Virus record (IMG/VR): IMGVR_UViG_3300005338_000001
Coordinates: 14,527 to 78,526 of that record
DNA length: 64,000 nucleotides
Reading direction: 5' to 3' (one strand)
Source of the DNA: a virus
Within the stretch, counting starts at the first letter, position 1. Each line of letters opens with the position of its first letter. Positions 3,539 through 58,511 of the stretch are shown in pieces. Under the pieces are notes generated by a model. It made no database searches. It worked only from the letters and a program-made list of their open reading frames with translations, and was not told the DNA's origin. A program made the position numbers and the translations under genes.

Positions 3539-5374
3539 TTACTGTACGTCCGCCGCCGATTCAACGATCTTCGGCGATTCGGTCGGTGGCAGAATCGGCA
3601 CTGTCACGCCGTCCGTAGTGACGTGCGGAGTCGGCACGCCGTTCAAGTCCTGCAAAGTCACGTCGTTTCCTTCGGTCAGATGTTGCGCGACCTGATCGGC
3701 AACGTCGGGATGCAGCCCTGCCGATGAAGCGGCGTCATGGAAGTTCGCCAGCGCGGAGTTGTAGCGTGCCAACGCATCGCTCTTGATAGTCTGCTTCACG
3801 GTTTCCTTCGCCTTTGCAATATCAGGTCCGAAGTCAACCCCCATGAATCCAGCAAGCCTGCCAAGACTTTCTGGCGTCTCAGTTTCGCCAATGATGGAAG
3901 CGTAGGCTTTCTCGGGATCAAAGCTCGCGTGCTTTTTAAGCGCGCTGATGGATTCGGCCAGATTGATCGTCTTCGCGCCTTCCTTGGCCTTTTTTGTAAC
4001 GTCACTCTCAGTGCTGGGTTGTGCCCATTTCGGCATGAGCTTCGGAGCCTTGGACTTCACCGGCAACGCGACCTTCCGAGCTTCCGTCGCCTTCGGTGCA
4101 TCCGAACCCCAAATGGCTGAGGTTGTGTCAGGCTTCGCGATCTCGGTTGCGGGCGCATCCGGCAGCACGATGCCGCTCTGGTGCGCGTTGTCGTCGGTGC
4201 CGTGATTTTCTAGATGGGTTTGGATTTGCTGCCGTTGCGCCTCAATCTCGTTCTGTTTTTCCGAGACGTAATCTGCCGTGGACTTCCCGGCCTTCTTGGC
4301 AGCCGCATCAAAATCGGCGCTCAGGCTGGAGTATTTCTTGTCCAGCTTGTCGAGGTTGGAAAGCTGGGCCTTGAGTCGCGAGGTCTGCTGCGGAGCCTTG
4401 CGGATGTCCTGCGTCTGCTGGCTTCTTGCGTTCGTCAACTCCTGCTGCATAGCCTGATGCGCGAAGCCGTCAAGCTGTTGCTCAATCTCCTCTGGCGTCA
4501 TCGAACGCATGGCCTTGATTCGCCCCGCCGAATCTTCGTATCCCGGAAGAATCGGAAGGCTCGGATTGGCGATCATCGAAAGGACATCTGTGCGGGCCTT
4601 TTTACCGGCAGCGCTCACCCTGCCTTGAATGGCTGGCGTCATGGCAATGCCGCTCACGTCGAGTTCCTTTTGCGCCTTCTCTGTGGCGGTCATCTGACCC
4701 TTCGCATTCCACGCCAAGGCTGAGTTTGGATTGAGGCGAATCTGCTCCTTCTGTTCCGCAACTTTCGCGTCGTGCTTCATCATCATCATGTTGGATGAGA
4801 CGAAGTTTCCATTCGCGTCCCTCACGACGTACGGAGCCTTTCGGATCGCGTCGTATCCGAGCACGCTTCCAAAATGTTCAAAGTCCTTGATGGATTCCTG
4901 CGCATCCTTCAACGCGGTATCAATCGCAGCCTTCCCAGCATTTGTCGCGGCCCCGTACTGATACTTCGTGCGAAGAAGGTTTACCTTCATGGCGTAGTCC
5001 GGATCGTCCGCACGTAGGTGCAGAAGTTCGATCCCGATGTTCGGGACATCAATTTCCGCCTGCCGTTCCTTGGCCCTCGCGACCAGCGCCTTCATGTAAT
5101 TGGCACGCTCTTTCTCGTAGTCCAAGTCCATCTTCGATCCGTCCAAGAGCGCGCGGTGAGCCGCTATCTTGGTCCGCACTTCTTCCAGTTCCAGCTTACG
5201 CTTTTCAATCGGCTGCTTGGCGGCCTGTTCGGCGGCGATTCGCGCCTCGCGTTGCTGTGCCATCTCGGCAGCCCGATCCTTGTCCGCTTGATTGATGTCC
5301 TGAAAGCGCAACCTTGCCGCAAGTTCTCGCTGCTTTTGCGGATTGGCGGCGTCGGTGCTGTATCGAACTCCCAT
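3539..5374 (-). CDS. Coiled-coil-rich putative internal virion/ejection protein (611 aa)
   Basis: Helical, A/K/E/Q-rich; tightly packed in the virion operon. Confidence 0.55.
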   Translation of the reverse strand: MGVRYSTDAANPQKQRELAARLRFQDINQADKDRAAEMAQQREARIAAEQAAKQPIEKRKLELEEVRTKIAAHRALLDGSKMDLDYEKERANYMKALVARAKERQAEIDVPNIGIELLHLRADDPDYAMKVNLLRTKYQYGAATNAGKAAIDTALKDAQESIKDFEHFGSVLGYDAIRKAPYVVRDANGNFVSSNMMMMKHDAKVAEQKEQIRLNPNSALAWNAKGQMTATEKAQKELDVSGIAMTPAIQGRVSAAGKKARTDVLSMIANPSLPILPGYEDSAGRIKAMRSMTPEEIEQQLDGFAHQAMQQELTNARSQQTQDIRKAPQQTSRLKAQLSNLDKLDKKYSSLSADFDAAAKKAGKSTADYVSEKQNEIEAQRQQIQTHLENHGTDDNAHQSGIVLPDAPATEIAKPDTTSAIWGSDAPKATEARKVALPVKSKAPKLMPKWAQPSTESDVTKKAKEGAKTINLAESISALKKHASFDPEKAYASIIGETETPESLGRLAGFMGVDFGPDIAKAKETVKQTIKSDALARYNSALANFHDAASSAGLHPDVADQVAQHLTEGNDVTLQDLNGVPTPHVTTDGVTVPILPPTESPKIVESAADVQ

Positions 5375-11951: not shown

Positions 11952-12206
11952 GATGAGGAAATTGGACTGGCGCAGGAATTGGAGTCCCGTGCACCAGCAT
12001 GGCCGCAAAGCCACAGCGTCCCGTTACCAGATGCGTGCCGCCGCGTCAACGCCTCAGTTTCAGGTTGACGCGGTTGCGGTGGCTGTGCAGAGTTGCGACA
12101 GGTGGACCTGCAAGTGGCCATCGGGATAAAATCCGAGACACGGGCAGGCGTTAAGGCTTACGGTGAAACGCCGTTATTGAGCCGAGCCGCAAGCCGCCTC
12201 CCTAAT

Positions 12207-12278
12207 CGCGGGTTAATTCATCGGCAGAAATCTGGCCTCATAATCCGGAAGTAGTGGGTTCAATTCCCACACCCGCAA
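12207..12278 (+). tRNA. tRNA(CAU), initiator (fMet)-like with atypical pairs
   Basis: Acceptor CGCGGGT/ACCCGCA with C1xA72 mismatch; loop CTCATAA; T-arm GTGGG-TTCAATT-CCCAC; A73. C31xU39 and A10xA25 mismatches. No encoded CCA. Confidence 0.85.
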
Positions 12279-12328
12279 CCCCTCTGCGAACTTCCTTGCA
12301 TCCGCCGCCGTTGCGACGAAGATACGGA

Positions 12329-12588: not shown

Positions 12589-13083
12589 TCAGTAGTGGAT
12601 TTTAGGCGTCATCTGAGGTCCGATTGAAAAACTCGGATAGGCGCGGAGGAATTCTTGCGGGTTCTGTGCGCGCTGCATTGCTCGCCACTGTTTCCTCGGC
12701 ATTCCTTTTGGTCGTCCTGCTGAATTTCCGTTTTTCATCTTCGCCCTAGCCTGATCGCGAAGCTCCTGCCATCGATCCTTTTTCCGGATCTTGTTTTGTC
12801 GCGGCTTGGACATGAAGTTGTTGGCGTAACGGTCGCGCAGCTCAGCAGCATCCAGTGTGTCTGTTTTGTGCCGATGAACCATTCGGTGACAAGCGTGGCA
12901 CAGCAGCACCAAGTCCTTCAGGATCGTGTCGTACGGTGTTGCGCGATACTTCCAATGGTGACACTCCAGTTGCCTGTCTGTGCGGCAGATCACACAGGCG
13001 CGTTTGTACCGCGACAGGCATTGGATGCGAAGCTGTTGCCAGTGGTCGGTGGTGAGGTATTGCTGGTACTGCTGGGCGTTCAT
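12589..13083 (-). CDS. HNH endonuclease
   Basis: YQQYLTTDHWQQLR...CVIC...LECHH...DLVLLCHACHRMVH. Confidence 0.85.
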   Translation of the reverse strand: MNAQQYQQYLTTDHWQQLRIQCLSRYKRACVICRTDRQLECHHWKYRATPYDTILKDLVLLCHACHRMVHRHKTDTLDAAELRDRYANNFMSKPRQNKIRKKDRWQELRDQARAKMKNGNSAGRPKGMPRKQWRAMQRAQNPQEFLRAYPSFSIGPQMTPKIHY

Positions 13084-13381
13084 GGGATCACTTAAAACGA
13101 AGAAAGGAAAGAACAGGAAAAGCAAAAGCCCCCCCGAAAAGCTGAGCCGCTACCATGCGGAAAAGGAAAGAAAAAAAGAAGGAAAACCAGAACACCGCCA
13201 CAGCGATGCTCGACGTTTTCGCTCTTGCTGGTACGCCAGTCCTGCCGATCCCGTTCCTGCCAGCGAACATCATCGCATTCAGGGCGGGGTAGAACTTAGT
13301 TACCCTCTACGCTTGGGCTGGCTGTAGCGACGCCCTTTCGCCGGGATTTACATGACCGGCAACGTGGTTCGTGCCGTTCCC

Positions 13382-13767: not shown

Positions 13768-13968
13768 CTATTCTTCGTCCCCGTAATCACCGCCCCAGCG
13801 GTCTGTGTCATCGCTGTCGTCGTCCAGCACCGCCTTGATGAGCCGATGCTGCTCCACCTGCAAGACTCCGATGGCCGACGCCAATGAAAGCTGGAACTCA
13901 TGGCAGTAGCGCGTCACGAGTTTTGAAAGGTCCGCCTCGAAGGCGATGATTTGTTCGCGCTCAGTCAT
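13768..13968 (-). CDS. Hypothetical acidic protein (66 aa)
   Basis: ATGA overlap with the upstream gene. Confidence 0.6.
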   Translation of the reverse strand: MTEREQIIAFEADLSKLVTRYCHEFQLSLASAIGVLQVEQHRLIKAVLDDDSDDTDRWGGDYGDEE

Positions 13969-14841
13969 GCGGTTGCCGTTTCTAGTCTCTTTGCGCCGAT
14001 GAGCTGCCGCTGAATCCAGATCACCTTGATGACGGTCTTGCCGTTACCGCTGCGCTGGTGGCGAAAGTGTCCGCGACGCCAATGAATGCGGCGGTGCCCG
14101 TGCTCGTTGTCGCCTGCGTCGCCGATAACCGCTTCTGGCTTCCGATACGCGCGGCCAATGAAGTTCGGACTCCACAGTTCGCACTGCTTTTTCTTTTTGT
14201 GCTCCTTTGCTTCGCGGACCTGAACGCCGGTTTCAATGAACTCAGGGCACGCCAGCATCCCAAGGATCAGTTGCAGCGCCGACTTCGGAATGCTCTTGCT
14301 CGCGAACAATTCCTCCTCGGGATTCATCGCCTCTCCATCGTTCTGTCCGTAATCCAATCCGAACCCGTGAACGGTTGCGTTTGAAGCTTCGGAAATTGCG
14401 GTGCTGTCGAGCGGACTTTCCCAAGTGAAAATCTTCCCGCTGGATGCGAGGGCTACGATGATCATCGTTTCGCGTCTCTCGTGAACGGGCCAGTTTGTGA
14501 TGATGGATTTTTGCAGGAACGGATTACTCCACAGCGGTTGTTCAAACGCATACGTGCGACCCGGTTCAGTCTTGATGACCGCCATCAGGTTGATGTGCCC
14601 GCATGGGCAGAGAAGCATTCCATGAGGCAGCGCAAACAGCATCGCCGGAAACGGCCACGGCATTTCTTCCATCGAGAAGTCAGCCGGAAGGTCTGTGTTG
14701 ATGAGCGATTGAAACAGGTCTGCCGCCACAAAGAATGTAGGCACCTCAAAATCATTGAGCGCCCGGATCGCCTTCAGGACGGTGCCTCCCGTGTCGCGAC
14801 TGAACGCAGTGCGATCAACAGCGTGTTCATCGGTGAACTCC
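13965..14841 (-). pseudogene. Uncharacterised MGE protein with a C-terminal HWRRGHFR motif, 5'-truncated by the IS1-like element
   Basis: HWRRGHFRHQRSG...KVIWI. The reading frame runs into the IR at 14842 and the predicted start lies inside the element. Confidence 0.6.
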
Positions 14842-14907
14842 GGTCGTGTATCATTTTGAAAGATTTGCGGACTCGCCACGGTGCGGCGTCTGTGTCAGAC
14901 GTGAGGG

Positions 14908-15024
14908 ATGAACACGAAGCTCAAGGGTAAGAAATTCGATCTCGCACAGCTCGGAAAAGCGATTGTGGATGCGGCGACCAAGCCCGCGAAGAAGCGTGCC
15001 GCGCGGAAAGTTGCAAAGCGCTGA
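14908..15024 (+). CDS. 38-aa basic peptide (MNTKLKGKKFDLAQLGKAIVDAATKPAKKRAARKVAKR)
   Basis: Hand-translated; GAGG upstream; lies just inside the left IR. Confidence 0.5.
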   Translation: MNTKLKGKKFDLAQLGKAIVDAATKPAKKRAARKVAKR

Positions 15025-15125
15025 TTCGATTCGATCTCAGCGATCCCACTTGTTCGGCTTCATGACCGATAGGAACGGCAGCCACAGCAGCACCAGAGGC
15101 GCTACAAGGATGGTGACGAGGGTTT

Positions 15126-15428
15126 TCACTTGTTCGGAGACTGCTGCGCCGTCAGCCGCTTGGCGAGCAGGAACAGTCCGATGGCGACTGCGGCGCCGAT
15201 CGCAACGACGATGCCTTGGACGAGTTCGGTGAAGTAGCCGGTTGAGTGGTACGGATGGAAGATGGATTGCGGGACAAACTTCTGGCCGTGTCCGTCCGCG
15301 ACCGCTGTGCCGTCTGGCGTGACGGTAAAGACCAGAAAGGCCAAGCACGCGTACCACGCTGTCCACAGGCCGGCCACGGCGGACACGATGTAGCAGCAGA
15401 CTGCGAGAATCAGGCGGAGCGGTTTCAT
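15126..15428 (-). CDS. Cargo membrane protein (100 aa, 2 TM)
   Basis: Two hydrophobic segments; 7 nt downstream of the protease gene. Confidence 0.6.
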   Translation of the reverse strand: MKPLRLILAVCCYIVSAVAGLWTAWYACLAFLVFTVTPDGTAVADGHGQKFVPQSIFHPYHSTGYFTELVQGIVVAIGAAVAIGLFLLAKRLTAQQSPNK

Positions 15429-15435
15429 GCGGCAA

Positions 15436-16257
15436 CTACCTCGCGAGCGTCAGCGGCATCAGGGTTGATCCGGATTTGCGCCAAAGCCAGAGTGGCACAT
15501 CTGCCGGCACCGCAAAGTTGAGCATCTGGCCTCGGATGAAATGAGACCTGACAACTGCCACAACCTTGCCACTGGCATCAATCACCGGGCCGCCGCTTGA
15601 ACCGGGAGAGATGGCAGCGGTGATTTGCAGCATCTCATGCTCATCCTCATCCGTCCGTGTTCCGGAAACGATCCCTTCCGTGATTGAGAATTCAAAGCCC
15701 AGGGGATTGCCGATCACTGCAATGCGGGTGCCCGGAGCAACGCGGGTTGCATCGCTCAACTCTAAAAACGAGTGGTTTCTTCCGCCAGTGGAAAGCACCG
15801 CGATGTCGTAGTCCTTGTGCAGAGCGATTGCACCAGCCACGTTGTACACATCGCCGTTGATCGTCTTCACTGTGGCTGTGTGCGCGCCCTCCACCACGTG
15901 AAAGTTGGTCACCAGCAATCCGTCCTCGGAAATGAAGAAACCGGATCCGGTAGCGGTCTTTCTTCCAAATACGTCAAAGACAGAAATCCGCACAACCGCT
16001 CTGCTCGCGTCTTCAAAAATGCGCGCAGTGTCGAACGGTCGCGACGGCTTCTCAGCGCGGACAGGCGCAGGCGTCTCGGCAGCCGAAGCGGTTTCCTTGA
16101 CTGGCGTTGCGTTGTTCCCCGAGTCCTGCCGCAGCGCTCCGATGACCAGCACTAGGGCAATCAGTCCGCCAGCAACCCAGCAAGCAATCTGCACCCGCTG
16201 ATTCAAGCGTTCTGCGGGAGGAGTCTTTCGCAAAATTACCTTCGGTACTCTTCTCAT
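15436..16257 (-). CDS. Membrane-anchored trypsin-like serine protease (S1C/HtrA-like, no PDZ)
   Basis: Catalytic triad motifs TNFHVV, DIAVL and AISPGSSGGP, plus GSGFF; N-terminal TM helix. Confidence 0.9.
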   Translation of the reverse strand: MRRVPKVILRKTPPAERLNQRVQIACWVAGGLIALVLVIGALRQDSGNNATPVKETASAAETPAPVRAEKPSRPFDTARIFEDASRAVVRISVFDVFGRKTATGSGFFISEDGLLVTNFHVVEGAHTATVKTINGDVYNVAGAIALHKDYDIAVLSTGGRNHSFLELSDATRVAPGTRIAVIGNPLGFEFSITEGIVSGTRTDEDEHEMLQITAAISPGSSGGPVIDASGKVVAVVRSHFIRGQMLNFAVPADVPLWLWRKSGSTLMPLTLAR

Positions 16258-16595
16258 GGCATCTGTGGTGCTCTGAAAACGAGCGGCGCGGTCACCGCAT
16301 CCCGCCGAGGCACCTGAGAGAGCCAGCACGGTAATGACAGCGACCGCGCCTATCCGGCGCGATGGCTGCAAAGGACCGTGCGTGAAAATTCTCAGGTTTT
16401 CGGCGGGCCGTTCGCAGAACGCGAAATTGAATGTTGTTGTCCGCTGAAATCAGCCAACGCAAGCGGTTGCGTCAACACAAGAATCACTGGAAGCGCTTGG
16501 AGAGATTCGTTCGGCTTTTAGCGTCACGTTTTTGGGTTGCGAAAAGAGTTGCAAAAAAGAGTTGCGTAGGTCCGCAACACCTGTATCATGCCCTC

Positions 16596-17027
16596 ATGAA
16601 CGAAGACGATTTTGACTCTCAGATTCAACGCGACATCACTGCGATGGAAACGGAATTACGCGACCTTCAGCGCGCACTCGATGCAGCACGAACGTATCGT
16701 GCGCTCCGTCGCAAAAAGGGCGGCGTGAAATCGCCGACCATGACCCCCGATCCGATGCTGCCGCTGACTGCAAATCACACAGCGAAGAACGGCAGCAACA
16801 AGAAACAGACCGCCGCGAAGGCGATCCGCGAAGCCATTGCATCGTGTGCGACCGACTACACGGTTTACGATCTGGGGCGCATCCTCGCGGCGCGCGGCAC
16901 GCCAGTTGGCCGGCCTGCACTCTCACAGTTCCTGTCCCGGCTTTTGAAGGACAAGGAAATCACCCTCAAGACTCCGGGCAAAGGTCCGAAACCAAACGTC
17001 TTCACCAAGGAGGTAACAACCACGTAG
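16596..17027 (+). CDS. Coiled-coil plus winged-HTH DNA-binding protein (143 aa)
   Basis: N-terminal heptads; C-terminal RPALSQFLSRLLKDKEITLKTPGKGPKPNVF. Confidence 0.65.
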   Translation: MNEDDFDSQIQRDITAMETELRDLQRALDAARTYRALRRKKGGVKSPTMTPDPMLPLTANHTAKNGSNKKQTAAKAIREAIASCATDYTVYDLGRILAARGTPVGRPALSQFLSRLLKDKEITLKTPGKGPKPNVFTKEVTTT

Positions 17028-17034
17028 AAAAAGC

Positions 17035-17068
17035 GAACCCGGCGAGCGCTGAAACGCCTGCCGGGTTC
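17035..17068. promoter_or_regulatory. GC-rich hairpin directly upstream of the tRNA
   Basis: GAACCCGGC...GCCGGGTTC. Confidence 0.55.
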
Positions 17069-17073
17069 TAATT

Positions 17074-17146
17074 GTCGTAGTAGCTCAATGGATAGAGCAC
17101 CTGTCTGCTAAACGGGAGGTTGCTGGTTCGAGACCAGCCTACGACG
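17074..17146 (+). tRNA. Class I tRNA with GCU (Ser) anticodon and Arg-type identity elements
   Basis: Acceptor GTCGTAG/CTACGAC; D-arm GCTC-AATGGATA-GAGC; anticodon arm CCTGT-CTGCTAA-ACGGG; 5-nt variable loop AGGTT; T-arm GCTGG-TTCGAGA-CCAGC; G73; followed by CAA. Confidence 0.9.
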
Positions 17147-17235
17147 CAACTAACAAACCAGCGGTTGCCCGCCAGCCTGCACATTGACACGCGCAAGGTA
17201 ACGACGGGACCGCTTAAAAGCAAGCACAAAATCCC

Positions 17236-18087
17236 ATGAACAAACTCGACCGTTCCAAGCGCGCGCAAATCCTGCGCTGTCTCACTGAAGGCACTTCCAT
17301 TCGTGCCGCTGCACGCCTCACCGACTGCGCGATCAACAGCGTGGTGAAACTCCTGATTCAAGCGGGCCGCGCCTGCACGGAGTATCAGGATCGCACACTC
17401 CGAAAACTCAACTGCCAGAGGCTGCAACTCGATGAGGTTTGGAGCTTCGTTTATTGCAAGGAAAAGAACGCCACTGCGGAAGAAAAAGCCGCTGGCGCTG
17501 GCGACGCGTGGACGTGGACGGCACTCGACGCGGACTCAAAGGCAATCGTCGGCTGGTTTGTCGGCCCGCGCAACGCGCGCTCGGCATTCCATTTCATCGG
17601 CGACCTTGTTGATCGGATGGCTTCGCGCAAAGTGCAGATCACAACCGATGGATTGAGTCTCTACGTCAACCCCGTGCATTCGATGTTCTGTGGCGAGGCC
17701 GATTACGCGCAGTTGCAGAAAATCTACGGCACAGAGCCGATGCCGTCTGGCCGATACAGTCCCGCGCAATGCATGGGGAGTCGTCGCGCTGTGCTCAACG
17801 GCAACCCCGATCCCGCACATGTTTCAACGTCCTACGTGGAACGCCAGCATTTGACGCTGCGCATGAACAACCGCCGCTTTACGCGCCTCACGAACGCCTT
17901 TTCAAAGAAGCTGCAAAACCTTGAGCACTCCGTTGCGCTCTACACGATGAGCTACAACTTCTGCAAGATTCACAGTTCGCACCGCGTCACTCCCGCAATG
18001 CAGCTTGGAATTGCGGATCACGTGTGGGAGACAGAAGAGATCGTTGACCTGATTGACGCTCTCGAAATGGCTGGAAATTCAAAATGA
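17236..18087 (+). CDS. IS1-family DDE transposase (283 aa)
   Basis: N-terminal HTH; QLDEVWSFV, ITTDG, STSYVERQHLTLRM, RRFTRLTNAFSKK, TPAM. The stop lies within the right IR. Confidence 0.9.
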   Translation: MNKLDRSKRAQILRCLTEGTSIRAAARLTDCAINSVVKLLIQAGRACTEYQDRTLRKLNCQRLQLDEVWSFVYCKEKNATAEEKAAGAGDAWTWTALDADSKAIVGWFVGPRNARSAFHFIGDLVDRMASRKVQITTDGLSLYVNPVHSMFCGEADYAQLQKIYGTEPMPSGRYSPAQCMGSRRAVLNGNPDPAHVSTSYVERQHLTLRMNNRRFTRLTNAFSKKLQNLEHSVALYTMSYNFCKIHSSHRVTPAMQLGIADHVWETEEIVDLIDALEMAGNSK

Positions 18088-18095
18088 TACACGAC

Positions 18096-18599
18096 CTAGA
18101 AATCAATGATGTTGTGAGAGGACAGGATGCTGACAGGAGGAAGATCGCAATCAACCAGAGCCATCCCCACATCTTCGGCATGTGCTTGCAGCAATGGCAG
18201 GCGCGTCGTAACCAGCATCTGGCAGTTCATGTAGGCCGCCTCCACCAGCACACGGACATCTTGGCGAGATCCACCAGGCAGGACATTTCTTGCGAGGATT
18301 TTGCTCACGTGCATTTTGGTGACTGCTTTTTGAGTGTCCGTAAATGCCGGGCAATCGCAATCACTGTCCTCAATTTCTTGCCGCACCAATCTGGCTCGTT
18401 CGCGTTGTTCCCTGTCTGCTGATTCCGTTTCTGTGGCTGCAATCTCCACAAGAACGGATGGACAGATGATGAGATCGAGCCGGAGTTTTTTCCGGAGAAC
18501 TTGGATTGCTTTCGTGTGATGCGAAATTCCAAACCGCTCCGCAAACAACACTTTCGTGTCAAGAGCAGCCCTACGCGGCTGTTCTTGGGCAAGAGCCAT
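18096..18599 (-). CDS. PIN-domain (VapC-like) protein with a degenerate active site
   Basis: ALDTKVL, PSVLVEI, DVRVLVEAA, LVTTR (canonical DTN...E...D...T-x-D). The stop codon uses the last base of the IS1-like IR. Confidence 0.65.
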   Translation of the reverse strand: MALAQEQPRRAALDTKVLFAERFGISHHTKAIQVLRKKLRLDLIICPSVLVEIAATETESADREQRERARLVRQEIEDSDCDCPAFTDTQKAVTKMHVSKILARNVLPGGSRQDVRVLVEAAYMNCQMLVTTRLPLLQAHAEDVGMALVDCDLPPVSILSSHNIIDF

Positions 18600-18973: not shown

Positions 18974-19957
18974 TTACAGTCCACCCGTCGTGTCGTGCAT
19001 CGTGAGCCGCTTTCCCTGTGCCTGTTTCAGTCCGGCAACCGTGCGTTCGCCGTCCGTTTCCTTCCGGCTGTTCCAGCGGAAATCGAACTCCGCGACGTAG
19101 CGCCCAAGGTGCTTGCGCGAGATGTGATGGAAGTTTCCGATCACGCCACGGCGCAAAAGCGAGAACGAGCTTTCCGCGTAGTTCGTGGAAACAACTTCGC
19201 CGTCCGGCTCGGTGCGCTGGTATTCGCGTTTCCCGCCAGCCTTTCCGTGCGTCACGAATTTGTGGCGGAAGTCCGCGCCGAGTTTCTTGTATCCGGGATG
19301 CTCGTCCGTGTGAATGGTGGAACCCGCCGCCACGTGCTCACACACGGCTTCGCGCAGGTTCTTGCCCGTCACGATCTCGGAAAGCACAACGGAGCGGCGC
19401 TTGCCCGTCTGGCGCTCTACTAACGCCACGACGGCAGACTTTGATCCACGGCGGAATCCCTTGCCCTTCGTTTTCGGACCGTAGTAACACTCGTCAACCT
19501 CTACCATACCGTTCAGTTTTCCATCGGGAGTGACATCGGCCAGAGAGTGGCGGATGCGATGGCAGAGAAACCACGCGGACTTGTAGGAGCCGAGTCCAAG
19601 GTGACGCTGCATCTGCTTTGCGCTCATTCCCTTTTTCGCACCGCTCATGAGATACCAAGCGATCAACCACTTATCGAGGGTGATGTGCGAGTCTTCAAAA
19701 ATCGTTCCCACCGTGACGCGGAAAGACTTTTTGCACTCTGCGCACTGGCGCAAGCCGACACGGATTTTCTTTTCTTTGTTCGCCGTGAGCTTCCAAATTT
19801 TCTCCGCGTCCGCGTTTCCGCAGTGCGGGCAAACGGGACCGTTTTTCCAGAGGATCGTTTCCATGTATTCGATGGCTTTCTCCTCTGTGGAGAAGCGCGC
19901 CATGATTTCGGGAAGCGTCAAATCTTCCGGCGTGAGAAACGTGTTGCTCTTGTTCAT
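18974..19957 (-). CDS. IS1595-family transposase (327 aa)
   Basis: Zn ribbon CPHC...CAEC, GTIFEDS, VEVDECY, IHTDE, TNYAESSFSLLRR, YVAEFDFRWN. Confidence 0.92.
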   Translation of the reverse strand: MNKSNTFLTPEDLTLPEIMARFSTEEKAIEYMETILWKNGPVCPHCGNADAEKIWKLTANKEKKIRVGLRQCAECKKSFRVTVGTIFEDSHITLDKWLIAWYLMSGAKKGMSAKQMQRHLGLGSYKSAWFLCHRIRHSLADVTPDGKLNGMVEVDECYYGPKTKGKGFRRGSKSAVVALVERQTGKRRSVVLSEIVTGKNLREAVCEHVAAGSTIHTDEHPGYKKLGADFRHKFVTHGKAGGKREYQRTEPDGEVVSTNYAESSFSLLRRGVIGNFHHISRKHLGRYVAEFDFRWNSRKETDGERTVAGLKQAQGKRLTMHDTTGGL

Positions 19958-20004
19958 GCGCGAAGAATCTCACCGCGTAGAACAATTGTCAAGGGGATAA
20001 TCCC

Positions 20005-20798
20005 GAAATGTTGTCGTAACGGTTGACGTAACCGCGAGCGACTTTTTGCAAATAGTCCTTTCGCTGATTCGCGACCCGCTCATGGATTCTCGCCGCACGA
20101 CTCGCTGCTTTCTTGCGACGGTTACTGCCTTTTGTTCGGCGGGCAATCATACGCTGCGCGATGCGCAGTGCCCTCAGTGTGTGTTTGAGGTGCCGTGGAT
20201 TCTCAACCTTGTTGCCTTCACTGTCCGCGACCAGATGCTTGAGTCCGAAGTCCAATCCTACGCTCAGTCCTGTTTTTGGAAGTTCTTCGGTCTCAGTTGC
20301 GCACACGGCCTGCAAATACCAACCACTCGGCTTGTGAAGGATTCGGCAGAATTTGAGCACGCCATTGATGTCCCGATGCCGATTGAACCGGATGCGTCCC
20401 CCGAGCATCTTTCCGGCCTTGAAATAGCTTTCGGAAATCCCATTGCTTACGGCATCTCGGAACTGGATGGAATGCCATCGGTTCGCACCCTTGAAGCGCG
20501 GGAAGCCTTTCTTGTTCGCGCCCTCCTTGCAGCGCCGAAAGAAGTTCGCAAAAGAAACATGCAAACGCTTGAGTGTGGTATCCACAACCACGGCGGGAAT
20601 CTCAGGATGCTCTTTGCTGCCGTGCTTTTTGTCCTGCGCGAAAAGGTTCATGTGCTTTCCGGTCGCCTTGTAGTGGGAAACCAGTTCCACCAGCGCGGAA
20701 TTGTAGAGTTCCCGCGACAATCGCAGCGTCTTCCACAGCGCAGTTTCCTGCGACGGATTCGGCCTGAGACGAAATTCGTAGGTGAGCATCTTCGGCAT
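20005..20798 (-). pseudogene. tnpB: IS200/IS605-type TnpB, truncated before RuvC II
   Basis: YEFRLRPN, RELYNSAL, GFPRFK, VGLDFGLK (RuvC I), KGSNRRKK, NQRKDY. Ends at YDNIS, where the IS1595 end begins. Confidence 0.88.
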
Positions 20799-20870
20799 GA
20801 TGGCGCGCGCAAAAAGAAAGTGCAAGAAATATCTTGACCGTTTTTGGACCACCGTGGTAGATGTAGTCCC

Positions 20871-30707: not shown

Positions 30708-31120
30708 ACCTTACCGGAAAGGATGTGCAACAACTTTAATTTCATCTCTTTTCTGTCCTTGGCGCTAAGTGGCACGATGCTTGCTTTTCACAAACCATGC
30801 CAGTAAGGACGTTTATTTACTGTAAGGTGATTCTGGCTTGTGTGTGGCGCGAGCGTGGCGGTAAGGTGTCGCCATGAGTGAACAAGAAAAGAAGAATCAG
30901 CACGCCGTTGCGCTTGGTCGTCGCGGTGGCAACGCCAGGGCTGCGAAGTTGACGCCCGAACGCATGAAAGAGATTGCGGAAATTGCGTCCTTGGCGGCAA
31001 AGAAAGCGCGTGAATCGAAAAAAGATGCTGTTGTAGTCGCCCCGTAACTCAACCACTTACAAACAATCGTATCATCGGAATCACTTTTCTTTTGACACCT
31101 TACCGCAAAGGCTCTTTACT
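30708..31120. promoter_or_regulatory. Divergent promoter region with a repeated operator-like motif ACCTTACCG
   Basis: ACCTTACCGGAAAGG at 30708; GCGGTAAGGTGTC at 30858; GACACCTTACCGCAAAGG at 31094 overlapping TTGACA (31092). Confidence 0.7.
30874..31047 (+). CDS. Small basic protein with a KGG-like motif (57 aa)
   Basis: Hand-translated: MSEQEKKNQHAVALGRRGGNARAAKLTPERMKEIAEIASLAAKKARESKKDAVVVAP. Confidence 0.7.
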   Translation: MSEQEKKNQHAVALGRRGGNARAAKLTPERMKEIAEIASLAAKKARESKKDAVVVAP

Positions 31121-53938: not shown

Positions 53939-56900
53939 TTAGATTACATTCCAGATCGCGCCGTCGTTGACGACAGTGATGGAGTCGCCTGCGTTCAGTG
54001 TGACGGACGCCACTGCCGAGGACGTAAAGATGTTCGAGCCGCCGCCCGTCACATCCACCGTCACGGCAGCAGCACCCTTGTTCTTGATGGTCTGACGGAC
54101 GCCAGTGTTGCCCGAAACTGCGAGCAACGAGATCGTGAACGCGACAGTTGCGTGGTTCCCCACCACGACATCATCTGTCGCCAACATGCTGTAGGTCGTA
54201 GTCTTAACCGATACCGAAACTTTGCGCCCACCGCTCGTGGCGAACACGCCGCCAGCGCTACCGTCCCCGAGACAAGCCGTGATGGTCGTAGTACTGATAG
54301 CGAACGCCGCACCACTGGACGTGTTGACTCCAAAGGCTAGCCGCGTGAAGGCCGTGGAGGCGTTGTTGCTGAGAACCAGCAGCCCGTCCACCGTGGGGCA
54401 CATGAGACGGACGTTCACGTTCCCGCCACCATCGGAAATGTAGAGCGTTCCGTTGACGTAGAAGTTAGTGCTGTCCACGCCGATTCCGGTAGAAACCCCA
54501 GCCGGTGCCCAGTAGCGCATCACCTTGTCGCGGAATCCTACACCGTCCGTCCAGAGGCGCAGGAACCGCACTGAGGCTGTGCCGACGCTGGAACTGAAGT
54601 CTCCATCCGTGGAGGTGAGGTCGCCAGAAACCGTGAGGTTGCCGCCCGACACAGCGAATCCACCAGTCGCCGACGCCACTGTGATGTTGGCCGATCCGTT
54701 AAACGACACACCGCCAATCGTGCGGGCATTCGCCAGAACTGTAGCGGCACCTGCGGTCAGACCGGATGCCGTGCCGGTCAGGTTCGTGGCAACGCCGCTT
54801 GAAGGTGTGCCGAGCGCGCCGCCGTTCACCACGAACGCGCCAGCGCTTCCGACAGCCACCTGAAGTGCCGTGGCGACACTGGTACCGAGTCCGCTGACGT
54901 TCGTGATGGCCGGCGTGATGGTGACGTTAGCGGCTGCCGTCACCAGCCCTTTGGCGTTCACCGTCCAGATGGTCGATTCGGTCGCGCTGCCGAAGCTGCC
55001 AACATTGCTGTTGACCGTCGCGAGCGTGGTGGCCCGGTTGGAGCTTGTCACGTCGCCAGTCAAGCTGCCGATGGTTGTGACGGTCGCGGCGTTTCCGCTA
55101 ATGTCTCCTGGGAACGTCGCGGACGGCCATTCAAAGTTCACCGTGCCGCTTGTGGTGAAGTTGCCGTTGCTGCCGGTGCCCCAGCCGCCGCTCACGTTTA
55201 CCGTAGCGGTGCTGGACTGCGCGATGTCCTTGTTCGCTGCGTTTGTAGTGATGCGACAGTTCTCGATGTTCACCGTTCCTTTGCTCGCTGTGATGCCGTC
55301 GATTGTCGCGGCAGACAGGTTCAAGTTGCAGCCTGAAAGCAGCAATGTCGCCGTGCTGCCAATACCAGTCGAGGGAATGGTCGTAGTGCCAGAGTTGCCG
55401 ACAAACTGCGCGCCGAAGATACGGATCGTCGCGCTGCCGCCCGTCACACTAAAGGGAGTGCCAGTGAAGCCTGCCGCGTCCAATTCACCGAGATAGAGAA
55501 ACGCGCTGGCGTTTCCGCCAAGTGGCGCGTCAACGAACAGCGCGGTATCGTTGGCAGTCGCCTCCATTTTGGGATGCCCAAGGACATAGAGCTTTCCGCC
55601 GCCTGCCTTGATACGCCCAAAGAGCTTCTGTGCGGTGACGTAAATTTTGTTCCCGCTGCCGCTGTTGGTTTCGATGCAGATCGTTGAAGTGGAACGAAAT
55701 ATTTTGCCCGAGAGCCACACAGCCCCAGAGGTGTCGGTACCGTGTCCATACACCACACCTTCTGTCGAATCTCCATTCGCCCATTCCTCGGCTGTAAACT
55801 CAGCATCTCCGGTTGCTGTCGTGTTGACATCCGAGTAGAAGGCGGACGACTTGCCGTAAACGTATTGTGCCTGTCCGCGCAGCTTTCCATTGCTCCACCA
55901 GATCGCATACACAATATCCGCTCCGGTCGCGGAGATATTACGCGCCTTGAGTGTCAGTTGCCCTCCTGCGACATTCACGGCTTCCATCGCCAAAGCCGGC
56001 GATCCAGAGTGCGTGAGCGTGATGTCCAGCGCCTCAATATTCACGACACTGGACGCATGGGTGACGTTCACGACGCCGAAGTTCGCCAGTCCGGTTGCTG
56101 AACTGGTAAGCACGAACGTGCCCTGTCCCGTCACGTTGCACGTTACCGACGCTCCCTTGTCGTCCAGAATGCCGACTGCCGATGCGTTCTGCGTCATCGT
56201 CACAGTCGCGCCTGCCTCGAAATGCCAGTTGACGCCGTTCTTGAGGATCGAATCCGTGACGGCGTAGCTACCGGGCCGCACAAAGATCGTGGTGCCGCTG
56301 ACCGCCGCCGCCTTCGCAGCCGCGAGCGTCAGGAACGAGGCATTGAAGGTGCCGGCATTCGTGTCGTTGCCGTTCACTGAATCCACCCACAGCATCTTAC
56401 CGGTTGCGATGCTGGTGATGCCGCCACTGCCGCCGTTCAACCACGCCCTGCGGTCGCTGTTGCTCGTAATGACGCCACCGGAAGCAACGACAAGGGCCAA
56501 CGGATAGTAGTTGCTGGTCCAGCCGCTCGTGTTCACCACAGCGACGCCACTGCCGTCCAGTTCGATGTAGTTGGTCGCGTTGGTGATTACGACACCGGGC
56601 TGTGCGGCGATCTCGCTGCCGCCGAGCTTGCCGCCGTTGATGTCCACCGTCAGGGCGGTGCCGGACGAAACAAAGAAGTCGTTCTGGGCTGCCAACGGGA
56701 CGGGCGTGACGCTGTCGCTGAGGATCGCTGTAGCGTCAACTGTCAGCTTTTTGCGCCGCGTCTTGTCGTAGGTTCCGCTGCCGACTGACTTCTCCCATTC
56801 CACTTCTATCGAAGCGTCGTAGCTGGTGATGCCTGCCGTGAACTTGGCCTTGAGTTCAGCCGTGTCCAGACTCAACGAATACGTGTATGGCGAGCCGTCT

Positions 56901-57112
56901 GCTGCGGGTCGCACCGGGATCGCTGAAGCGAGAATCGTCGTAGTGGGATTTTGCCAACTGTTGACGCCGATCAGGATGCCGGTGCCAGCAGGAAATCGAA
57001 ACGGAACCCTCTTGCGCATGAACGTAACCGTGCCAGTCAGCGTCGCGCACAGCGCGGGGGGCTGCTGCCCAAGGCTCAGCACAAACGATTCAACGTCAAT
57101 TTCCAAATTCAT
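53939..57112 (-). CDS. Tail fibre/spike with a beta-helix region (1057 aa)
   Basis: WVDSVNGNDTNAGTF, IFVRPGSY, G/S/T/A-rich repeats, ARTIGGVSFNGSANI. Confidence 0.85.
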   Translation of the reverse strand: MNLEIDVESFVLSLGQQPPALCATLTGTVTFMRKRVPFRFPAGTGILIGVNSWQNPTTTILASAIPVRPAADGSPYTYSLSLDTAELKAKFTAGITSYDASIEVEWEKSVGSGTYDKTRRKKLTVDATAILSDSVTPVPLAAQNDFFVSSGTALTVDINGGKLGGSEIAAQPGVVITNATNYIELDGSGVAVVNTSGWTSNYYPLALVVASGGVITSNSDRRAWLNGGSGGITSIATGKMLWVDSVNGNDTNAGTFNASFLTLAAAKAAAVSGTTIFVRPGSYAVTDSILKNGVNWHFEAGATVTMTQNASAVGILDDKGASVTCNVTGQGTFVLTSSATGLANFGVVNVTHASSVVNIEALDITLTHSGSPALAMEAVNVAGGQLTLKARNISATGADIVYAIWWSNGKLRGQAQYVYGKSSAFYSDVNTTATGDAEFTAEEWANGDSTEGVVYGHGTDTSGAVWLSGKIFRSTSTICIETNSGSGNKIYVTAQKLFGRIKAGGGKLYVLGHPKMEATANDTALFVDAPLGGNASAFLYLGELDAAGFTGTPFSVTGGSATIRIFGAQFVGNSGTTTIPSTGIGSTATLLLSGCNLNLSAATIDGITASKGTVNIENCRITTNAANKDIAQSSTATVNVSGGWGTGSNGNFTTSGTVNFEWPSATFPGDISGNAATVTTIGSLTGDVTSSNRATTLATVNSNVGSFGSATESTIWTVNAKGLVTAAANVTITPAITNVSGLGTSVATALQVAVGSAGAFVVNGGALGTPSSGVATNLTGTASGLTAGAATVLANARTIGGVSFNGSANITVASATGGFAVSGGNLTVSGDLTSTDGDFSSSVGTASVRFLRLWTDGVGFRDKVMRYWAPAGVSTGIGVDSTNFYVNGTLYISDGGGNVNVRLMCPTVDGLLVLSNNASTAFTRLAFGVNTSSGAAFAISTTTITACLGDGSAGGVFATSGGRKVSVSVKTTTYSMLATDDVVVGNHATVAFTISLLAVSGNTGVRQTIKNKGAAAVTVDVTGGGSNIFTSSAVASVTLNAGDSITVVNDGAIWNVI

Positions 57113-57230: not shown

Positions 57231-58511
57231 TTAGGCATATTGACAAATGCTGTACGGGGCCGAACCATTGCATCGGCTGTGGCGAATTACCGCGCCGTAC
57301 GCGGTGTAGCGGGGGATCGCACCGAGTTCAAAGATGCCGCGGAAAAATCCCATCCGACCGTCCTTGTTCAGATCGGTCAGGTAGCCACGCCAGCCCCATT
57401 CACCGCGGAATCCCACGGGCTTGAAGTCGGTGCCACCAGTGTTGCCGACAGCGCCGGGGAACGTCTCCTTGATGAGCGCCTTGTTGAAGATGATGCTGTC
57501 TTCTGCGGTGGCTTGTTCGTAGTCATCATTCTCGGTGGCCTCGAAGCCCACGTCGGTCGCGACGATCTTGTACGGCTCAACCTTGACCCACACGCTGCCG
57601 TTGTGGTTCCAGCGCGGCACCGTCATGTCGATCACGTGCTGAAAGCCGCGGATCGGGGCTTCCGTCACATTGATCGCCTTGAGGAGATCATCCACGCGAT
57701 CCCGGTTCCACCGCATGTCGTTGCGGGTCTCGGTCTCGCTCTTGATGCCCCAGCTTGTCTCGGGGCTGCACAGGAGCGCGTAAACCGAACTGCCGTTTTC
57801 TTGCGTCAGCGCGGTCGGGCCAGCCCCGGCTAGATCCAGCTTGACCTTCCATCGGTCGAGCAGTCCTTGCGTGAGGCGTCCCAGCACATTGGCCCCGGCG
57901 GTCTTGAGGGCCGCGTTGGCACCAGACATGTTGAATGTCTCGGCACCAGCAGCCCCGCCGGCATTGGTGCGGGTGATATTGCCGACCGGCGGGATGCAGA
58001 CCACGACCTTGTTGGCGCACCAGTAAACGAAGTCCCGGCGGAACTTCTCCGTCATGGTGAAGGTGGTGTTGAACTTCAGGTTGTTGACGATGGCCTCGAT
58101 CTGCATCGGGCCTTCAAACGCCGTGAAGAGGTCGGTCGCGCAGAGACGCTGGCTTTCCAGCGCGAACTGCTGCATCGTGAACGGCACCTTCTTGGTTCCC
58201 ATCTGGAGCATGATGACCGGAGGATCGCAGTTGTTCTGGTCGGTGCTTCCGAGGCCGGCAGAGCCGATGTCAGCGAAGCCTGCGGCGTCATATGCGGGGT
58301 TGGTGATGGTGCCGCCGTCCGTGTAGGTGACAGCCGGCAGGGTGCGGCCAAATGTGGTTATGGACGGGCTGTAGCCGATGCCGCCTGGGAATGCGCCCTC
58401 TTCGATGAGGGTGAGCCACGGCGAGGCGTAGAGGGTGCGCTGGAGGATTTCGTTCTGGAGATAGCGCCCCGACTCGCGGAGCATGAAGTCTGGAATGTTT
58501 GTGACGGCCAT
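57231..58511 (-). CDS. Major capsid protein (426 aa)
   Basis: Size, strongly biased codon usage, own leader and terminator, and position ahead of the tail fibre. No diagnostic motif checked. Confidence 0.75.
   Translation of the reverse strand: MAVTNIPDFMLRESGRYLQNEILQRTLYASPWLTLIEEGAFPGGIGYSPSITTFGRTLPAVTYTDGGTITNPAYDAAGFADIGSAGLGSTDQNNCDPPVIMLQMGTKKVPFTMQQFALESQRLCATDLFTAFEGPMQIEAIVNNLKFNTTFTMTEKFRRDFVYWCANKVVVCIPPVGNITRTNAGGAAGAETFNMSGANAALKTAGANVLGRLTQGLLDRWKVKLDLAGAGPTALTQENGSSVYALLCSPETSWGIKSETETRNDMRWNRDRVDDLLKAINVTEAPIRGFQHVIDMTVPRWNHNGSVWVKVEPYKIVATDVGFEATENDDYEQATAEDSIIFNKALIKETFPGAVGNTGGTDFKPVGFRGEWGWRGYLTDLNKDGRMGFFRGIFELGAIPRYTAYGAVIRHSRCNGSAPYSICQYA

Follow-up and report, generated by a model that had tools for sequence, protein, structure and literature searches.

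A class-I tRNA with arginine identity marks and a serine anticodon, carried by an IS1-like transposon in a phage genome

In the 64,000-nt stretch of DNA analyzed here (the window), taken from a 78,526-bp IMG/VR virus record that has direct terminal repeats and is rated complete, a tRNA gene on the forward strand (17074-17146) presents the anticodon GCU (17107-17109) on a class-I body with A20 and G73. ARAGORN placed the gene at 17074-17147 (+), read gct as its anticodon, at position 34, and labelled it Ser, and the 73-nt canonical sequence matched the Rfam tRNA model RF00005 with 66 bits (gathering score 29, E = 3.9e-12) over model positions 1-71, the full model. The ARAGORN cloverleaf comprises an acceptor stem of 7 bp, a D stem of 4 bp, an anticodon stem of 5 bp including one G-U pair and a T stem of 5 bp. 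The D loop reads AAUGGAUA, in which the A following G18G19 is A20, the anticodon loop is CUGCUAA and the T loop UUCGAGA. The variable loop, AGGUU, is 5 nt long, the long variable arm of class II tRNAs not being present, and the discriminator is a G at 17146 followed by CAA, so that no CCA is encoded. The bases that form tertiary contacts are complete (U8, A14, A15/U48, G18, G19, G53-C61, U54, A58). Folded as a single strand, the sequence adopts a four-way junction at -30.1 kcal/mol (z = -3.3), a stability reached by 0 of 200 shuffles. A preliminary description of this DNA had reported paired stems, A15-U48, GCU, a 5-nt variable loop, A20, G73 and no CCA, and the sequence, ARAGORN and Rfam show all of these details to be correct. 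The tRNA is single-copy in the 78,526-bp genome.

The tRNA gene lies within a 3,255-bp unit (14842-18096) bounded by perfect 19-bp inverted repeats. The left repeat, GGTCGTGTATCATTTTGAA (14842-14860, +), is 100% complementary to the right repeat with which it pairs (18078-18096, +), and conforms to the repeat consensus of the clade to which the unit's transposase belongs, GGTAGTG(G/T)NTCAGTTTGAA. Just inside the left repeat lies a 38-aa basic peptide (14908-15024, +), a truncated version of the small basic protein that is the hallmark of the clade; its match to an HMM of that protein, made from 13 members, covers the N-terminal third of the model (17.5 bits, E = 7e-7 in a 3-sequence search). 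The cargo that follows consists of a trypsin-like serine peptidase of 311 aa (15436-16371, -; Pfam Trypsin_2 E = 4.4e-31, with PHROG protease families matching too) and of a gene directly upstream of the tRNA (16596-17027, +), probably encoding 143 aa within an ORF open from 16431, the C-terminal part of which is winged-helix-like. The sole homologue of this protein among 5.8 billion proteins (P0121, 91% identical) begins at the same Met; its structural look-alikes in the ESM Atlas are the Fur, PadR and ArsR winged-helix regulators, which are weak matches with a TM of about 0.5, and searches of Pfam, PHROG and NCBIfam gave no match. Between this ORF and the tRNA, a repeat search identified a hairpin (17035-17068, +) with 14-nt arms that are 86% complementary and a 6-nt loop; no U tract follows it, and a terminator scan gave no call.

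The transposase, a single-ORF IS1-like DDE enzyme of 283 aa (17236-18087, +), starts 89 nt past the tRNA and ends with its stop codon within the right repeat. Its scores fall below the cut-offs of the family profiles (NCBIfam IS1, 55 bits against 100; Pfam DDE_Tnp_IS1, 22.9 against 24.1). It has thousands of homologues, at no more than 71% identity, many of them source-named 'IS1 family transposase'; the closest relatives (P0002-P0010) are 66-71% identical, and the nearest homologues carry PF03400 and owe the IS1 family transposase name to JGI and NCBI. No 8-bp target duplication flanks the window copy (left flank TGAACTCC, right flank TAGAAATC), and the element has probably been rearranged since insertion, which agrees with the accumulation of insertion sequences next to it. 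Just beyond the element, an IS1595-family transposase (327 aa) directly adjoins a TnpB-like gene cut short at 287 aa, where the family profile runs to 360-390 positions (18974-20852, -), so that, with the IS1-like element, three insertion sequences are crowded into 6 kb of the phage genome. A promoter scan of the whole element found no sigma-70-like promoter between 14800 and 18150, and a search for the empty site among viral contigs turned up relatives neither of the phage gene on the flank (13968-14840, -) nor of the cargo gene with the winged helix. The earlier characterization of the tRNA as transposon-borne is borne out by the 19-bp repeats, their fit to the clade consensus and the hallmark peptide, the clade being a real transposon type. 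At 17074-17146, a class-I tRNA gene of intact structure forms part of the internal cargo of an IS1-like transposon that inserted into a phage genome.

The phage itself is a very novel lineage. A PHROG scan of its ten largest tested ORFs left eight without a family at E <= 1e-5 and recognized a glycosyltransferase and a DNA methyltransferase, and its 1,057-aa protein had no tblastn match in 50,697 phage genomes. Examples of large phage ORFs are those at 53939-57112, 3539-5374 and 57231-58511. The only other tRNA of the phage is a Met-CAU tRNA (12206-12281, +; Rfam 43 bits), which adjoins a small HNH endonuclease gene (12589-13125, -). Outside the transposon, a phage ORF at 30865-31044 (+) matches the C-terminal half of the clade's small basic protein (HMM, E = 1e-12) and includes the motif KN..AVALGR..GG.ARA..LT.E.

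The amino acid identity of the tRNA was assessed against known determinants. Bacterial tRNA-Arg is recognized mainly through A20, together with C35, U or G at position 36 and A or G at position 73 (PMC9976931), while bacterial SerRS requires the long variable arm, as listed in the identity table of the same source and otherwise established; in that table, the combination G34-C35-U36 fits the anticodon determinants of no synthetase besides ArgRS. The window tRNA carries the full arginine set (A20, C35, U36, G73), and the prior observation that the four arginine elements are present and the serine arm absent thus agrees, in both sequence and cloverleaf, with the PMC9976931 list. Its GCU anticodon pairs with the serine codons AGC and AGU, and is not one of the anticodons for arginine codons (NCG or YCU). 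In place of tRNAscan-SE-style isotype models, 61 ordinary class-I tRNAs of the sampled loci served as a small reference, and among these A20 occurs in 7/7 Arg and 4/54 non-Arg tRNAs; it occurs in 14/14 of the tRNAs, described below, that share a GCU or ACU anticodon with the short arm (RCU tRNAs). With the anticodon masked, the nearest neighbor of the window tRNA is an Arg(UCU) tRNA (76%), and the mean similarity of the RCU set is highest to Arg, by a small margin (0.61, compared with 0.45-0.58 for other isotypes). Plain BLAST of the tRNA against five bacterial genomes returned top matches of mixed isotype and was not discriminating, and blastn against phages, plasmids and E. coli genomes yielded only generic tRNA or distant transposase matches. 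Arginine charging is, as a prediction, the best for the window tRNA, because all four arginine determinants are present, the long arm required by SerRS is absent, A20 is specific to Arg tRNAs and the nearest body is that of Arg(UCU). Judged from its sequence, the molecule has a dual identity, with arginine marks joined to a serine anticodon. Derivation from a tRNA-Asn through a change of GUU to GCU was also considered, Bacillus phage tRNA-Asn genes sharing 85% identity with it across the variable loop and T arm, and was rejected, as these genes lack A20. AsnRS, moreover, needs U35, and C35 is wrong for it.

In order to place the element, 240 loci encoding transposase relatives of 48-60% identity were sampled, 80 each from viral, genome and metagenome collections (L numbers). 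Most units of this clade span 2-5 kb, of which 1-4 kb is variable cargo between the left repeat and the transposase. The small basic protein, of ~80 aa, follows the left repeat in 202/240 loci, and exact 8-bp target duplications flank 52 of the 57 units with well-defined repeats. Classical IS1 is 768 bp long, with two frames joined by a frameshift and no cargo. The IS1 family (ISfinder/TnPedia) comprises a single-ORF branch with passenger genes, has repeats beginning GGT and makes short target duplications. The clade resembles IS1 in its source-named DDE transposase, in terminal repeats starting with GGT and in its 8-bp duplications, and differs from classical IS1 by its one ORF, the hallmark small basic protein, the variable cargo of 1-4 kb and the occurrence of a transposase-adjacent tRNA in ~9% of elements. 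The cargo is very mixed across loci L004-L243, including a restriction enzyme, a methyltransferase, HTH regulators and ankyrin and TPR proteins, and many tRNA-bearing copies hold an extra 0.7-1 kb of cargo after the transposase.

The tRNAs of the clade occupy what amounts to a slot. In 19 of the ~229 loci with enough upstream sequence (~9%), 20 tRNAs lie on the same strand as the transposase, 80-290 nt upstream of it, and wherever the ends of the element could be located the tRNA falls inside them. Exact target duplications are present in L010, L071, L098, L179, L112, L123, L104 and L023, and because they enclose the tRNA, the slot tRNAs moved with the element; this includes the RCU-bearing L098 and L179, both with the tRNA inside. 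The slot anticodons are unusual, with UUA, a stop-codon reader, in two lineages and several anticodons with A34. Short-armed tRNAs with GCU or ACU occupy the slot in L055, L088, L152, L109 and L179, while that of L098 sits further upstream in the cargo. The ORFs just upstream of the slot tRNAs showed no clustering by BLAST, and hence no conserved protein partner. Pfam detected no synthetase domain in the window cargo, synthetases were absent among the 25 most frequent of the 61 heterogeneous Pfam families found in 70 cargo proteins of tRNA-bearing elements, and the cargo genes of the window element included no partner nuclease. A search for antisense RNA found no complement of at least 8 nt within 400 nt of the window tRNA, and antisense duplex energies over 600 nt on each side, on both strands, were no better than those of shuffled flanks.

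Seven RCU tRNAs (window, L055, L088, L098, L152, L109, L179), all with GCU or ACU, A20 and a short arm, were found without a sequence bait, and UCU or CCU anticodons occur in none of the tRNAs of clade elements, the lone tRNA-Arg(UCU), at L020, lying outside its element. Eight further RCU tRNAs came from viral contigs searched with two patterns, and of these that of L268 lies 112 nt upstream of another IS1-like transposase and others are found in phage tRNA arrays. Across these 15 aligned tRNAs, there is no variation at A20, C35, U36 and A37, and every member has a purine at position 34; since eight of the 15 were retrieved with a pattern fixing the D-arm half and the anticodon loop, the invariance of A20, C35 and U36 is independent for the other seven only. 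The mean identity of the 15 is 71%, 95.5% of stem cells are paired, both sides change in 19 of 21 pairs, and 0/500 shuffles match these values. Position 73 is G, A or U across the class, and several members encode CCA. Odd features occur among slot and class tRNAs, namely a non-canonical T loop in L104, C33 in L152 and L245b, and C55 in L152 and L246, and C33 and C55 suggest decay in some members. In cellular genomes, the D-arm pattern was found with a pyrimidine at position 34 in 8/41 genomes of one phylum and with a purine in 0/401; in a second phylum, the purine-34 pattern occurred in 1/401 genomes, the one that holds the IS1-like element of L088. An exact-pattern scan of viral contigs for near-identical tRNAs, with the anticodon left open, found none.

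RCU tRNAs are a recurrent and diverged class with G or A at position 34, residing mostly on mobile DNA and with a shape held by selection. At the level of the class, the mismatch between identity and anticodon is real and under selection, and because the same arginine-body, serine-anticodon combination recurs on related transposons, this odd pairing looks maintained on purpose. The preliminary description had proposed searching homologous elements for conservation of GCU with A20, and at the level of the class the outcome is positive, with short-armed GCU/ACU tRNAs carrying A20 and no UCU or CCU. It had also raised the prospect that G34 is a private mutation or sequencing error. At class level this is excluded, because RCU tRNAs recur among bait-free finds, UCU/CCU anticodons number zero and the 15 tRNAs covary; the G34 of the window lineage, however, rests on one assembly.

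The best explanation for the locus, to which we would grant a probability just short of even, is that the gene specifies a mobile dual-identity tRNA that is charged with arginine and mistranslates serine to arginine at AGC/AGU. The tRNA would be co-transcribed with the upstream winged-helix gene and the transposase, released by RNase P and 3' processing, and completed with CCA by a host enzyme. Host ArgRS, blind to position 34, would then charge it with arginine, and competition with the host's long-armed tRNA-Ser(GCU) at AGC/AGU would lead to low-level, proteome-wide Ser-to-Arg substitution. Toxic, anti-phage, diversifying or decoy purposes for such a tRNA are speculation. Counting against the mistranslation reading are the absence of a sigma-70-like promoter from the element, the overall similarity to Arg tRNAs, which exceeds that to other isotypes only marginally, the odd features of some class members, the missing target duplication of this copy and the frequency of AGY codons in the phage (38% of serine codons). 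Moreover, because its carriers use AGY unavoided as serine, any Ser-to-Arg effect would be untargeted and would hit the carrier too, and an active mistranslator would damage its own carrier, given that transposases adjacent to RCU tRNAs use AGY at conserved serines as the others do.

The same codon data bear on the notion that AGC/AGU have been reassigned to arginine in the phage or its host, with the window tRNA as cognate, which has next to no probability. Apart from the existence of the tRNA nothing speaks for it. The AGC/AGU share of phage serine codons is typical for a GC-rich genome, AGC being the commonest serine codon, and in 229 aligned transposases AGY accounts for ~49% of codons at conserved serine columns (50% in RCU-adjacent transposases and 49% in others) and for 0/3,206 at conserved arginine columns, RCU-bearing elements included. 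Codon usage and the conserved-column analysis thus contradict reassignment and exclude it: AGY is not reassigned, and AGC/AGU stand for serine in the usual way, in the phage as well as in the transposases that travel with such tRNAs. It is also very improbable that the gene encodes an ordinary serine tRNA for AGC/AGU, charged with serine despite its short arm and supplementing or replacing the host tRNA-Ser(GCU). The GCU anticodon and the Ser label assigned by ARAGORN are in line with this, as are the prevalence of AGC among phage serine codons and the presence of G73 and C11-G24, which occur in tRNA-Ser as well. The long variable arm needed by bacterial SerRS is absent, however (PMC9976931), and A20 is an arginine mark. 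In addition, such a tRNA is the standard reader of serine codons in no lineage searched, because the pattern is missing from all of 800 cellular genomes except one, which bears an IS1-like element.

There are two further alternatives. One, possible although we consider it unlikely, holds that the gene yields a tRNA-shaped RNA that does not decode, acting as a decoy or sponge for an anticodon-loop enzyme, as a regulator, or as a built-in RNase P/Z processing site at which the transposase message is cut away from the cargo transcript. The constant placement of the tRNA, close upstream of the transposase and always in one orientation, the lack of a promoter of the tRNA's own and carriers without codon adaptation are all consistent with this, and among irregular tRNAs some are charged yet unused in translation and others inactive, near transposon or toxin-antitoxin genes (Mukai et al., PMC5389517). 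Yet the tRNA must be dispensable for transposition, because only ~9% of clade elements have one in the slot; a mere processing signal would need no conserved A20, C35, U36 or A37, nor a purine at position 34 in all members, and several members encode CCA. The other alternative, more doubtful still, is that of a redundant passenger under relaxed selection: a tRNA-Arg(CCU/UCU) captured at an insertion site, whose anticodon drifted by one base and which is now silent or decaying. GCU is indeed one substitution away from CCU/UCU, some slot tRNAs look degenerate (the T loop of L104 and the C33 and C55 cases listed above), G34 in the window lineage is known from a single assembly and the window copy has no target duplication. 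Against drift, however, stand the counts in elements, 0 YCU and 7 RCU, which cellular genomes show in reverse, and the extensive compensatory change that preserves the cloverleaf of the class, and the window tRNA has all stems paired and all tertiary-contact bases. The L088 tRNA, furthermore, is no recent copy of the Arg(UCU) tRNA of its own host genome, because the two are only about two-thirds identical, as read by eye.

Beyond the arginine-charged, serine-misreading tRNA proposed for the window, it is conceivable, though we think it improbable, that the IS1 clade as a whole keeps a slot for active identity-mismatched tRNAs (Arg-body GCU/ACU, UAA suppressors and others), spreading a heritable, tunable reading of the code between bacteria and phages. 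Such a slot-borne code change could act as a module for addiction or toxicity, or else generate diversity under stress.

Several known systems resemble the window tRNA in part. tRNAProX and tRNAProA, found with ProRSx in Streptomyces and Kitasatospora (PMC10404621, PMC11415595), are likewise natural bacterial tRNAs with the identity of one amino acid and the anticodon of another, and the tRNAProX family mistranslates, being toxic or beneficial by condition (PMC10404621; reviewed in PMC11415595). The tRNAProX molecules combine a proline body with an Ala, Asn or Thr anticodon, and are chromosomal and usually located beside a dedicated synthetase paralogue, whereas the window tRNA has an arginine-type body with a serine AGY anticodon, is borne by an IS1-like transposon with no synthetase gene nearby, and is known here from sequence. 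The allo-tRNAs and irregular tRNAs of soil Acidobacteria (Mukai et al. 2017, PMC5389517; PMC7609411) are alike in the mismatch of anticodon and identity, and in turning up in bacteria and phages from the environment, at times close to transposon or toxin-antitoxin genes. The allo-tRNAs are set apart by acceptor and T stems in an 8/4 or 9/3 arrangement, by serine identity and by their long variable arm, unlike the standard 7/5 class-I structure and arginine marks of the window tRNA, and the GCU-bearing 'E-loop tRNA1' (PMC5389517) has U73 and an extra loop, making it a different molecule. Some long-armed tRNAs of the IS1 slot, with UUA, UAG or AAA anticodons, may be of the allo-tRNA kind. Long-armed UUA tRNAs occupy the IS1-like slot of viral contigs in L010:4776-4859, an element with an 8-bp target duplication, and in L026:4781-4866 (the same gene being present in L027, L028 and L029), and these may be allo-tRNA-like ochre suppressors, which would read UAA.

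With bacterial and phage tRNA-Arg(CCU/UCU), the window tRNA shares a GGAUA-type D loop with A20, C35, U36, A37 and a purine at position 73, its nearest neighbor being a tRNA-Arg(UCU) encoded by Synechococcus phage S-WAM2, at 79% in blastn and 76% once the anticodon is masked. The difference lies in G34, which replaces C or U, and by which the arginine codons AGG/AGA become the serine codons AGC/AGU. Our literature search found no report of an arginine-type 7/5 tRNA with an AGY anticodon, nor of a tRNA slot in IS1-family elements.

To our knowledge, few natural code-misreading tRNAs have been described, namely the actinomycete tRNAProX, the allo-tRNAs and the case of CUG decoding in Candida. 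A tRNA that reads serine codons while charged with arginine, if true, would be new and would constitute a chemically drastic swap, from a small polar to a large cationic residue. With its gene on a transposon that passes among phages and bacterial phyla, it would make mistranslation a horizontally transferable trait. For annotation, it would mean that a 'tRNA-Ser(GCU)' call should not be taken for a serine tRNA where it is ~73 nt long and lies on mobile DNA. Should the tRNA instead be non-decoding, the conservation of its shape and anticodon loop would suggest that tRNA-like RNAs serve transposon biology in some way other than translation. The class lends itself to testing, as a single 73-nt gene suffices for expression in a laboratory strain.

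Other irregular tRNAs were noted in the course of the survey. A tandem trio of irregular class-I tRNAs is encoded at L245:12958-13186 (-), in a 39.7-kb viral contig with no IS1-like transposase nearby; two have GCU, one of them with C33, the third has an 8-nt anticodon loop ('cgca' according to ARAGORN), and GGAU is present in all D loops. At L255:1460-1533, in a Smithella-type MAG (G004), a chromosomal tRNA with the Arg-type D loop GGAUAGAGC and the anticodon loop CUAACGA was called Val(AAC) by ARAGORN, and its anticodon loop looks like an Arg(ACG) loop plus one extra base. Finally, the slot tRNA at L123:4741-4815, in an element with an 8-bp target duplication, has the anticodon GUU (Asn) together with C73 and a 5' G, resembling histidine identity (G-1/C73), and may represent a second kind of one-base anticodon mismatch.
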